Positions 857-1,002 of a stretch of 1,108 nt of DNA are shown piece after piece. The notes under the pieces were generated by a model. That model saw nothing but the letters and a program-made list of their open reading frames with translations, had not been told where the DNA came from and did no database searches. The stretch lies in the NCBI RefSeq assembly GCF_003334385.1, contig NZ_QOWN01000127.1; one strand, 5' to 3'. Source of the stretch: Escherichia coli (GTDB lineage Bacteria; Pseudomonadota; Gammaproteobacteria; Enterobacterales; Enterobacteriaceae). A program made the position numbers and the translations under genes. The number at the start of each line of letters is the position of its first letter. Position 1 is the stretch's first letter.

Positions 857-858
857 CT
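855..858 (-). promoter_or_regulatory. Weak Shine-Dalgarno-like AGGG, 8 nt upstream of the start codon
   Basis: Minus strand reads tat-AGGG-tataccac-ATG. Only a partial match to AGGAGG; it would sit at the extreme 5' end of the transcript if the promoter call is right. Confidence 0.3.
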
Positions 859-863
859 ATAAA

Positions 864-892
864 ATTATCTGTATACAAATAAAACAGTTCAA
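864..892 (-). promoter_or_regulatory. Candidate sigma70 promoter for the minus-strand gene: -35 TTGAAC (892..887), 17-bp spacer, -10 GATAAT (869..864)
   Basis: Minus-strand reading is TTGAAC-tgttttatttgtataca-GATAAT. Each hexamer is 5/6 to consensus with optimal 17-bp spacing, and the -10 lies 17 nt upstream of the ATG, implying a very short leader of roughly 10-13 nt. Confidence 0.4.
870..877. promoter_or_regulatory. Perfect 8-bp palindrome TGTATACA inside the -35/-10 spacer (candidate operator)
   Basis: Read directly from the sequence. Centre is 21 bp (two helical turns) from the centre of GGTATACC at 849-856. Confidence 0.35.
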
Positions 893-949
893 CGTCGGAT
901 ATATAAAGAAAATCTGATGTCTCGCTGCTCTCATGAGCTTACTCCTGAA

Positions 950-987
950 GAAATTCCGAATTTTAATATGAAGTTTTTCGGAATTTC
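950..987. repeat. Perfect 11-bp inverted repeat GAAATTCCGAA (950-960) / TTCGGAATTTC (977-987) with a 16-nt AT-rich spacer
   Basis: Arms are exact reverse complements. The pairing cannot extend outwards (949 a vs 988 c) or inwards (961 t vs 976 t). Not followed by a U-tract on either strand. Centre lies about 79 bp upstream of the -35 centre. Confidence 0.6.
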
Positions 988-1002
988 CTTACTATAACAT
1001 CG

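Follow-up and report, generated by a model that had tools for sequence, protein, structure and literature searches.

The question raised by this locus is whether small open reading frames (ORFs) lying just upstream of a bacterial adhesin gene take part in its control. The 1,108-nucleotide (nt) stretch of Escherichia coli DNA analyzed here (contig NZ_QOWN01000127.1; hereafter, the window) covers the 5' part of an Eib-family trimeric autotransporter gene of a lambdoid prophage, encoded on the minus strand, together with the DNA upstream of it. The original prediction had flagged two tiny ORFs ahead of this gene, regarding both as probable chance ORFs in AT-rich DNA and raising leader-peptide control as a possibility. 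Homologue annotation, identity of the upstream DNA with that preceding eibA of prophage P-EibA (ECOR-9, AF151091), and a match of adhesin residues 214-282 to the EibD stalk (PDB 2XQH, E 1e-23) place these ORFs in the proximal 90 to 150 nt upstream of the Eib-family adhesin gene. The reading we favor, with a probability of roughly 0.55, is that a conserved fold of the leader RNA occludes the adhesin ribosome-binding site (RBS), and that both tiny ORFs are incidental. The reading frames in question are:

846 to 1, minus strand: 5' part of the Eib-family trimeric autotransporter adhesin gene; start codon ATG 846-844, 282 codons, running off the window
934 to 857, minus strand: the minus ORF, 25 amino acids (aa), judged incidental
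917 to 997, plus strand: the plus ORF, 26 aa (MSRCSHELTPEEIPNFNMKFFGISLL), a chance ORF antisense to the adhesin gene

Both small ORFs, each with an ATG start, were recovered in the ORF listing. The arrangement was also as first described, with 10 nt (856-847) separating the stop of the minus ORF (859-857) from the adhesin ATG, and with the plus ORF spanning a perfect 11-bp inverted repeat (950-960/977-987).

A conserved, predicted three-way junction encloses the adhesin ribosome-binding site

Related sequences were drawn from blastn against E. coli genomes, a phage collection, and a metagenome pattern scan. By blastn, 41 of 5,426 E. coli genomes matched the upstream region, at up to six places per genome, and the metagenome scan, anchored on palindrome, Shine-Dalgarno sequence (SD), and start codon, gave 76 contigs. 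These sources yielded 58 distinct upstream sequences of 262 nt, which average-linkage clustering grouped into six lineages (members at least 88% identical) plus one chance match; the window falls in lineage 5. When the palindrome-SD-ATG pattern was searched in one genome per species, all 27 matches were chance occurrences in unrelated taxa, with none in Enterobacteriaceae, and the module therefore seems to be confined to E. coli prophages.

When the gene-strand RNA was folded from about −110 to +12, all six lineages, represented by seven sequences, shared one architecture of three helices (P1, P2, and P3). The element is a three-way junction of approximately 105 nt on the gene strand, at about 942-841 in the window, and it spans the adhesin RBS. 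In the minimum-energy fold of every one of the seven representatives, the SD or the AUG lay inside P1, whose 5' arm is found some 85 to 95 nt upstream of its SD/start-codon partner. The parts of the element in the window are:

946 to 942, minus strand: AGGAG, SD-like, the version of a GGAAU motif found in the window's lineage
942 to 932, minus strand: 5' arm of P1 (anti-RBS segment), containing the ATG of the minus ORF (934-932)
928 to 884, minus strand: P2, a long hairpin with arms 928-911 and 900-884 and a conserved U-rich loop UUUCUUUAUAU, built on CAUCAGAU...AUCUGAUG
880 to 867, minus strand: P3, a small hairpin formed by the palindrome UUUGUAUACAAA, (A)UUUGUAUACAGAU
861 to 841, minus strand: 3' arm of P1, with the adhesin SD (AGGG, 858-855) and start codon, and also holding the stop codon UAG of the minus ORF (859-857)

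The sequences of the P1 arms vary by lineage while their complementarity is kept. The 5' and 3' arms read CCUCAUG/CAUGAGG in lineage 1, AUAUCCUG/CAGGAUAU in lineages 2 and 3, AUACCCU(U)AUGAAA/UUUCAUAGGGUAU in lineage 4, and AUCCUG/CAGGAU in lineage 6. For the window, the fold of lowest energy joins GCUCAUG (938-932) to CAUGAGC (847-841) at the main start codon; if the register shared by the other lineages is applied instead, 8 of 10 positions of 942-932 can pair with 861-852. These duplexes were more stable than those of shuffled arms (P = 0.0125 for the window, and 0.0015, 0.0005, 0.001, and 0.018). For P2, 12 of 17 positions pair in the window (mismatches at 924/888, 923/889, 922/890, 918/894, and 915/897), and across lineages 12 of the 17 pairs show changes on both sides. 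P3 was recovered by RNAalifold on a sequence-only alignment and was 100% paired in 34 distinct sequences. The GGAAU/AGGAG motif stayed single-stranded in all folds, and as GGAAT it was invariant in the sequence-only alignment A2.

A2 is a MAFFT alignment of ten sequences from four lineages, on which the structure was drawn by hand. In this alignment, 84.7% of cells paired, compared to 33 to 46% when partners were slid by 1 to 3 columns; nine pairs had changed on both sides, compared to one to five in the slid controls, and the covariation score of 0.293 (0.055 to 0.121 when slid) was reached by none of 500 shuffles. A covariance model built from A2 found the window (841-947, minus strand; 57 bits, E 5e-11), although its lineage was outside the seed, and also found lineage 6, likewise outside the seed, at 37 to 46 bits; a large share of these scores is primary-sequence similarity. 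In a model-fitted alignment of 34 distinct sequences (A3), 82.6% of cells were paired, compared to 27 to 48% when slid, with double changes in 15 pairs and a covariation score of 0.311 (0.04 to 0.14 when slid). Compared with dinucleotide shuffles, fold z-scores were −2.1 for the window, −5.1 for L002 of the same lineage, and −6.3, −5.3, −4.2, −5.4, and −3.1 for the other representatives. Finally, eight polymorphisms fall in the helices within the window's lineage; pairing is kept at five, gained at two, and lost at one.

The structure also had a direction. G·U cells outnumbered A·C cells on the gene strand by 157 to 55, and in 42 of 43 sequences the reverse complement folded less well than the gene strand, the gap being 11 to 18 kcal/mol in lineages 2, 3, and 6. 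This points to an RNA feature of the adhesin-coding strand and not to a symmetrical DNA site. What the analysis shows is the structure, its covariation, its strand, and, in the predicted fold of every lineage, a P1 that contains the RBS or start codon.

We also considered that the conserved blocks could belong to an activator-dependent promoter as DNA-level protein sites, bound for instance by a nucleoid protein or the ParB-like IbrB, with the fold as a side effect of the palindromes TTTGTATACAAA, GGTATACC, and CATCAGAT/ATCTGATG. Perfect palindromes two helical turns apart (GTATAC at 871-876 and 850-855) would suit such sites, as would the lineage-specific palindromes at the SD position (GGTATACC in lineages 4 and 5, GGATATCC in lineages 2 and 3, and GATATATC in lineage 6), and neither the promoter scan nor the aligned upstream sequences contained a good −35 anywhere; the reported need of eib expression for the IbrAB activators would suit them too. 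However, the G·U excess and the far better folding of the gene strand would not be expected of symmetrical DNA sites, the helices change sequence but keep pairing whereas protein sites keep sequence, and the complementarity in P1 is long-range, spanning approximately 80 nt. We therefore regard this explanation as quite improbable.

Opening of the fold by temperature alone was also examined. A simple RNA thermometer was rejected, as the predicted unpaired probability of −13 to +3 shifted by no more than 0.07 between 23 and 42°C in seven of seven representatives (0.39 to 0.41 in the window). Since the predicted fold is too stable to melt over this range, an active opener is implied.

A few further observations concern the same region. 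In a longer fold (−138 to +15), AUUUCUU upstream of AGGAG (947-953) pairs with AAGAAAU in adhesin codons 3 to 5 (833-839), extending P1; analogous pairings of U-rich with A-rich segments occur in lineages 2 and 3, but they are of low complexity and may be coincidental. A pseudoknot between the loop and the coding region (UUUCUU with AAGAAA, codons 3 and 4) was discarded, being inconsistent across lineages by eye and probably a low-complexity coincidence. The SD palindrome of the window (849-856) has a GTATAC core that repeats the core of the upstream palindrome TTTGTATACA (871-876), 21 bp away, and the SD palindromes could allow alternative pairing with P3 or form a dimeric protein site. The leader of L107 (metagenome contig ERZ1673734.14987) is recombinant, with a 5' part of lineage 6 type joined to SD, start, and signal-peptide sequence of lineage 2/3 type, and its anti-RBS arm AUCCUG still complements its new CAGGAU.

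The small reading frames are not conserved as genes

Two ORFs of this size are not surprising in the DNA concerned. In 2,000 dinucleotide-preserving shuffles of 847-1108 (36% GC), ATG-initiated ORFs of at least 25 aa arose at a mean of 0.96 per shuffle, with a probability of 0.66 for one or more and 0.25 for two or more, which bears out the view that they are chance ORFs; the conservation tests below agree. No SD was found in the sequence upstream of the plus ORF (AAAGAAAATCTG). AGGAG lies 7 nt ahead of the ATG of the minus ORF, and because only 4.6% of shuffles contained such a combination of an SD-like 4-mer and an ORF (≥25 aa), the minus ORF was worth a test of conservation.

Conservation of the reading frame, set beforehand as the test of both ORFs, was found neither for the plus ORF nor, across lineages, for the minus ORF. 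Even among relatives in the lineage of the window, L001 and L002 have ATA in place of the ATG of the plus ORF, L004 (by a 1-nt insertion) and L117 (by another indel) are out of frame, and amino-acid changes are frequent; the other five lineages have no counterpart. Its sole database match was weak, to a 41-aa PHROG of unknown function (E 0.004), and probably stems from automatic gene prediction in this part of the prophage. The plus ORF is a chance ORF.

Of the 32 distinct sequences in the window's lineage, 31 have an intact minus ORF and one, from a low-coverage contig, carries a frameshift. Lineage 4 (L010) has a 25-codon ORF with the same start and stop, and lineage 1 (L012) one of 22 codons. 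In the remaining three of six lineages, accounting for 17 of the 58 distinct sequences, the ATG is missing: lineages 2, 3, and 6 have no ATG, GTG, or TTG at this position (GAA, GAA, and ACA/ATA), and a stop follows after 10 codons. Even between lineages 5 and 4, a +1/−1 indel pair puts codons 3 to 9 in a different frame, and the C-terminal 'CIQII' they have in common is the conserved palindrome TTTGTATACAAAT in translation; the peptide is conserved no further than the conserved DNA blocks force. The 11 variants in the window's lineage comprised 4 synonymous and 7 nonsynonymous changes, compared to a neutral 22:51 (transitions), and segregating sites per nt were 0.133 in the ORF and 0.075 in flanking noncoding DNA of that lineage. 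Neither a synonymous excess nor a run of regulatory codons was seen in the minus ORF, and its polymorphisms gave no sign of selection at the protein level. It had no PHROG or NCBIfam match and was annotated in none of 14 RefSeq/GenBank records. With the ATG absent from half of the lineages, the peptide not conserved, and synonymous to nonsynonymous changes at 4:7, control by a leader peptide does not hold up as a conserved feature of these loci.

It could nevertheless be the act of translation that matters, and not the peptide. Ribosomes would then load on AGGAG, start at the AUG at 934, melt P1 to P3, and stop at UAG 859-857 on the adhesin SD, thereby activating, or coupling to, adhesin translation. 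This is compatible with the P1/P2/P3 structure and would supply the active opener that so stable a fold seems to need. AGGAG is unpaired in every predicted fold and lies 7 nt from the ATG, the ATG occupies the same aligned column in three of six lineages, the start and stop of the 25-codon frame are the same in two lineages despite the indels, and the intactness of the frame in the window's lineage and the low frequency of SD-preceded ORFs in shuffles are in its favor. However, the three lineages without a start codon keep the structure and offer only a CUG 3 nt upstream, the ATG is itself inside helix P1a, AGGAG has become AAGAG in 3 of 29 close relatives in the window's lineage, and synonymous change was not in excess. 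Moreover, the ATG can be accounted for without translation: it exists because the anti-RBS arm complements CAU/UAU beside the SD, or the CAUG of the main start, in the opposite arm, and lineages without such a triplet in the 3' arm lack the upstream AUG. We thus consider functional translation of the minus ORF unlikely, and the minus ORF is most probably a by-product of the anti-RBS arm.

Upstream stem-loop and promoter candidates

Three features bear on where the adhesin transcript may begin:

987 to 950, minus strand: upstream stem-loop with an 11-bp perfect inverted repeat and a 16-nt loop; z = −3.9 on the gene strand in the window
996 to 991, minus strand: candidate −10 TATAGT, with TG at 999-998 in the window
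892 to 864, minus strand: sigma-70-like site from a consensus scan, −35 TTGAAC (892-887) and −10 GATAAT (869-864), inside P2/P3

The upstream stem-loop corresponds to a 'stem_loop' annotated 104 to 141 nt upstream of eibA in AF151091. It was rejected as part of the core element, its arms differing by lineage and the hairpin being weak or absent in lineages 2 and 6 and lost in part of lineage 4. A TAnnnT hexamer is present at the same aligned position, 137 to 154 nt before the ATG, in 57 of 57 related distinct sequences, none of which revealed a conserved −35 for it. The extended −10 TGnTATAGT was dropped as a conserved feature since only 2 of the 32 sequences in the window's lineage have it. 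If used, the candidate −10 at 996-991 would give a leader of 140 nt that opens with the upstream stem-loop and takes in the minus ORF; transcription from 892-864 would leave that ORF out. The site at 892-864 is unlikely to be a real promoter, because neither its spacing nor its hexamers are conserved: lineages keeping GATAAT have TTG only 14 nt away, and the others have AAGAAA, AATCAT, or AATAAA. A single sigma-70-like site was found, compared to 1.2 expected in shuffles.

Two further sequence features were seen upstream: a second inverted repeat at 1005-1029 (GATATCACGTC/GAAGGGATATC, 82% complementary, 3-nt spacer), and TATCACCG (gene strand, about 1009-1002), which resembles a lambda operator half-site and whose conservation is limited to lineage 6.

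Prophage 'morons' are promoter-gene-terminator cassettes inserted in late regions, a concept of Hendrix and colleagues. The adhesin gene occupies the same type of locus, following a tail-fiber assembly gene, and its hairpins could accordingly be the terminators or insulators of such a unit. The hairpin at 950-987 and/or P2, with a U tract, would then stop tail-fiber transcription, the adhesin promoter would lie downstream (e.g., at 892-864), and P1 would have no role. In addition to the moron-like placement, a stem-loop is annotated just after eibA as well, U-rich tracts follow P2 in three lineages (UUUUAUUU in the window, UUUUUUUU in L008, and UUUGUUUG in L012), and a U run follows the upstream hairpin in lineages 1 and 3 (seen in L012, L014, and L069). 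The sigma-70-like site is where such a promoter would be placed, and the G·U asymmetry would fit any RNA hairpin on the gene strand. The terminator scan, however, reported neither 950-987 nor 884-928, whose stems are long, AU-rich, and interrupted, and the U tract after P2, poor in lineages 2 to 4 (GAUUUGU, CUGUUUGU), is at the same time the 5' arm of P3. The lack of conservation of the 892-864 promoter, and a conserved P2 loop sequence for which a terminator has no need, also argue against it. In particular, the complementarity of arm and RBS, kept with different sequences in five lineages, would be unexplained if the two were never on one transcript. We consider it doubtful that the hairpins serve this purpose.

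Weighing the case for an occluding leader

Returning to a leader fold that occludes the RBS, several points weigh against it. The structure was derived from the same sequences in which it was then counted, and A3 was fitted to the model, both of which inflate the pair counts; the slid controls and the unfitted A2 result are fairer measures. On a plain six-lineage MAFFT alignment, RNAalifold recovered P3 only, because the arms of P1 and P2 are out of register between lineages, and P1 was not in one register. The P values of the P1 duplexes, Fisher-combined with lineages treated as independent, give 6e-9, which is overstated because ancestry is shared. Accessibility of the RBS (fixed −14 to +3) was significantly below that of shuffled leaders in lineages 2 to 4 only, and not in lineages 1, 5, and 6. 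The window has the weakest copy (z −2.1, with 8 of 200 shuffles folding equally well), and the reverse complement of this copy folds marginally better than the gene strand (−28.5 compared to −26.8). The window carries the helix-breaking variant at 894, which together with the mismatch at 897 makes its copy the least stable. A transcription start at 892-864 would leave P1 and P2 outside the mRNA, and the accessible literature, the EibG papers included, contains no mapped eib promoter or transcription start site.

The adhesin gene and its neighborhood

The translated minus-strand frame of the adhesin gene begins with a signal-peptide-like N terminus. Its residues 1-213 matched no solved structure, nor any NCBIfam model at E values up to 0.01, and the best matches in E. 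coli genomes were approximately 94% identical and mostly covered the query in two to three pieces. Judged by these matches, the passenger domain seems to be a mosaic, or else new, when set beside the named Eib proteins. Within the signal-peptide coding region (809-825, minus strand), the scan flagged a terminator-like hairpin with a T run (GCTGTTTTGTCTGCGGC AGTTTTTTCA), probably by chance (0.3 expected). The C-terminal YadA anchor falls outside the window; full-length homologues are annotated as YadA C-terminal domain proteins beside tail-fiber genes, and in the 27 genomes matched by megablast against complete E. coli genomes the annotation was always 'YadA C-terminal domain-containing protein'.

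The neighborhood is a lambdoid prophage tail region, with gpJ, a tail fiber, a DUF4376 tail-fiber assembly protein, and 374 to 807 nt of unannotated DNA before the adhesin. On the 3' side follow a 156-aa hypothetical protein and an S6 autotransporter. In L001 to L016, a 156/157-aa hypothetical protein (ORF-156A of P-EibA) directly follows the adhesin in every locus, usually with an S6-family autotransporter (EaaA) next, and the three genes are a conserved cargo block. Where the intergenic gap is 680 to 800 nt, the remaining 400 to 550 nt are not alignable between lineages. This distal part contains two annotated 49-aa 'hypothetical proteins' antisense to the adhesin gene in L016 (phage PhiR5_2; 1800-1949 and 2003-2152, beyond the right end of the window), where RefSeq annotates nothing.

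Discussion

The idea that this stretch is a control region was borne out in part: it does look like one, but what is conserved supports an RBS-occluding RNA structure and not a leader peptide. We tentatively propose that 942-841 represents an undescribed cis-regulatory RNA family, the 'eib leader', that would silence translation of Eib adhesins until a specific input opens P1. The element would lie in the eib mRNA leader, where P1 would pair the anti-RBS segment with the SD or the start codon and keep translation low. The input could be a small RNA (sRNA) or a protein acting on the 5' arm. Alternatively, P1 might be opened by a factor that binds the always-unpaired GGAAU/AGGAG or the U-rich P2 loop, by ribosomes that load at GGAAU/AGGAG and initiate at the upstream AUG in the three lineages having one, or by a factor downstream of the IbrAB activator.

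Expression of eib genes reportedly requires the IbrAB activators and is weak without them, a need that an occluding leader would fit. EibG protein was found to escape detection at 23°C and to increase strongly in static culture, with a 3.2-fold rise in mRNA (PMC4352079), which would fit such a leader as well; a rise in mRNA of only this size beside such strong condition dependence of the protein leaves room for posttranscriptional control. A 168-bp upstream fragment has been used for expression of eibG from a plasmid (bioRxiv 10.64898/2025.12.25.695649), and this fragment would include the whole P1/P2/P3 element.

Neither the databases nor the annotations contained this element. Searches of Rfam 15 gave no relevant match in the window at E values up to 1, the only hit being a chance match to a small nucleolar RNA inside the coding region, and none at E values up to 0.1 in five other loci. 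None of the 14 records annotates P1/P2/P3, and AF151091 differs from the present picture in marking the upstream stem-loop only and not the helices between it and the start codon. Functionally, the closest known system is the rpoS leader of E. coli, in which a long inhibitory hairpin occludes the RBS and is opened by the sRNAs DsrA, RprA, and ArcZ with Hfq. In both, a long-range stem pairs an upstream leader segment with the SD/start region and is too stable to open by itself, implying an opener on the 5' arm, for which the conserved unpaired purine- and U-rich segments of the eib element could be binding sites. The eib element, however, has no sequence or Rfam relationship to the rpoS leader, its closing stem encloses a three-way junction, and its place in the mRNA is one we infer.

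As with RNA thermometers (ROSE and fourU), the SD/AUG of a virulence or adhesion gene is base-paired, and EibG, found at 37°C, is missing at 23°C (PMC4352079). Unlike typical thermometers, which are much less stable, the eib folds have energies of −23 to −40 kcal/mol and the P1 duplexes −9 to −18 kcal/mol, and ROSE/fourU models had no match in the window or the five other loci. Leader-peptide systems, i.e., trpL/hisL attenuation, ermCL translational attenuation, and unfolding by an upstream ORF, likewise have a short SD-bearing ORF that overlaps occluding arms, here ending 10 nt before the main start. The minus ORF departs from them in being missing from half of the structure-keeping lineages, in having no regulatory codon run, and in its nonconserved peptide. 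An alternative terminator/antiterminator fold was not found in the eib leader.

The element is probably a new cis-regulatory RNA of a familiar kind, supported by covariation and restricted to Eib-type prophage adhesin genes of E. coli. The tiny ORFs should not be annotated as genes, and the case shows that complementarity to a start region is enough to create a small ORF preceded by a good SD. Eib adhesins, including EibG of Shiga-toxin-producing E. coli negative for the locus of enterocyte effacement, are poorly expressed and depend on temperature, static growth, and IbrAB. If true, the eib leader would explain both their near-silence in new lysogens and their strong dependence on conditions, and an RBS-occluding leader offers a hypothesis, testable by mutation, for the posttranscriptional control of prophage-borne virulence and colonization factors.

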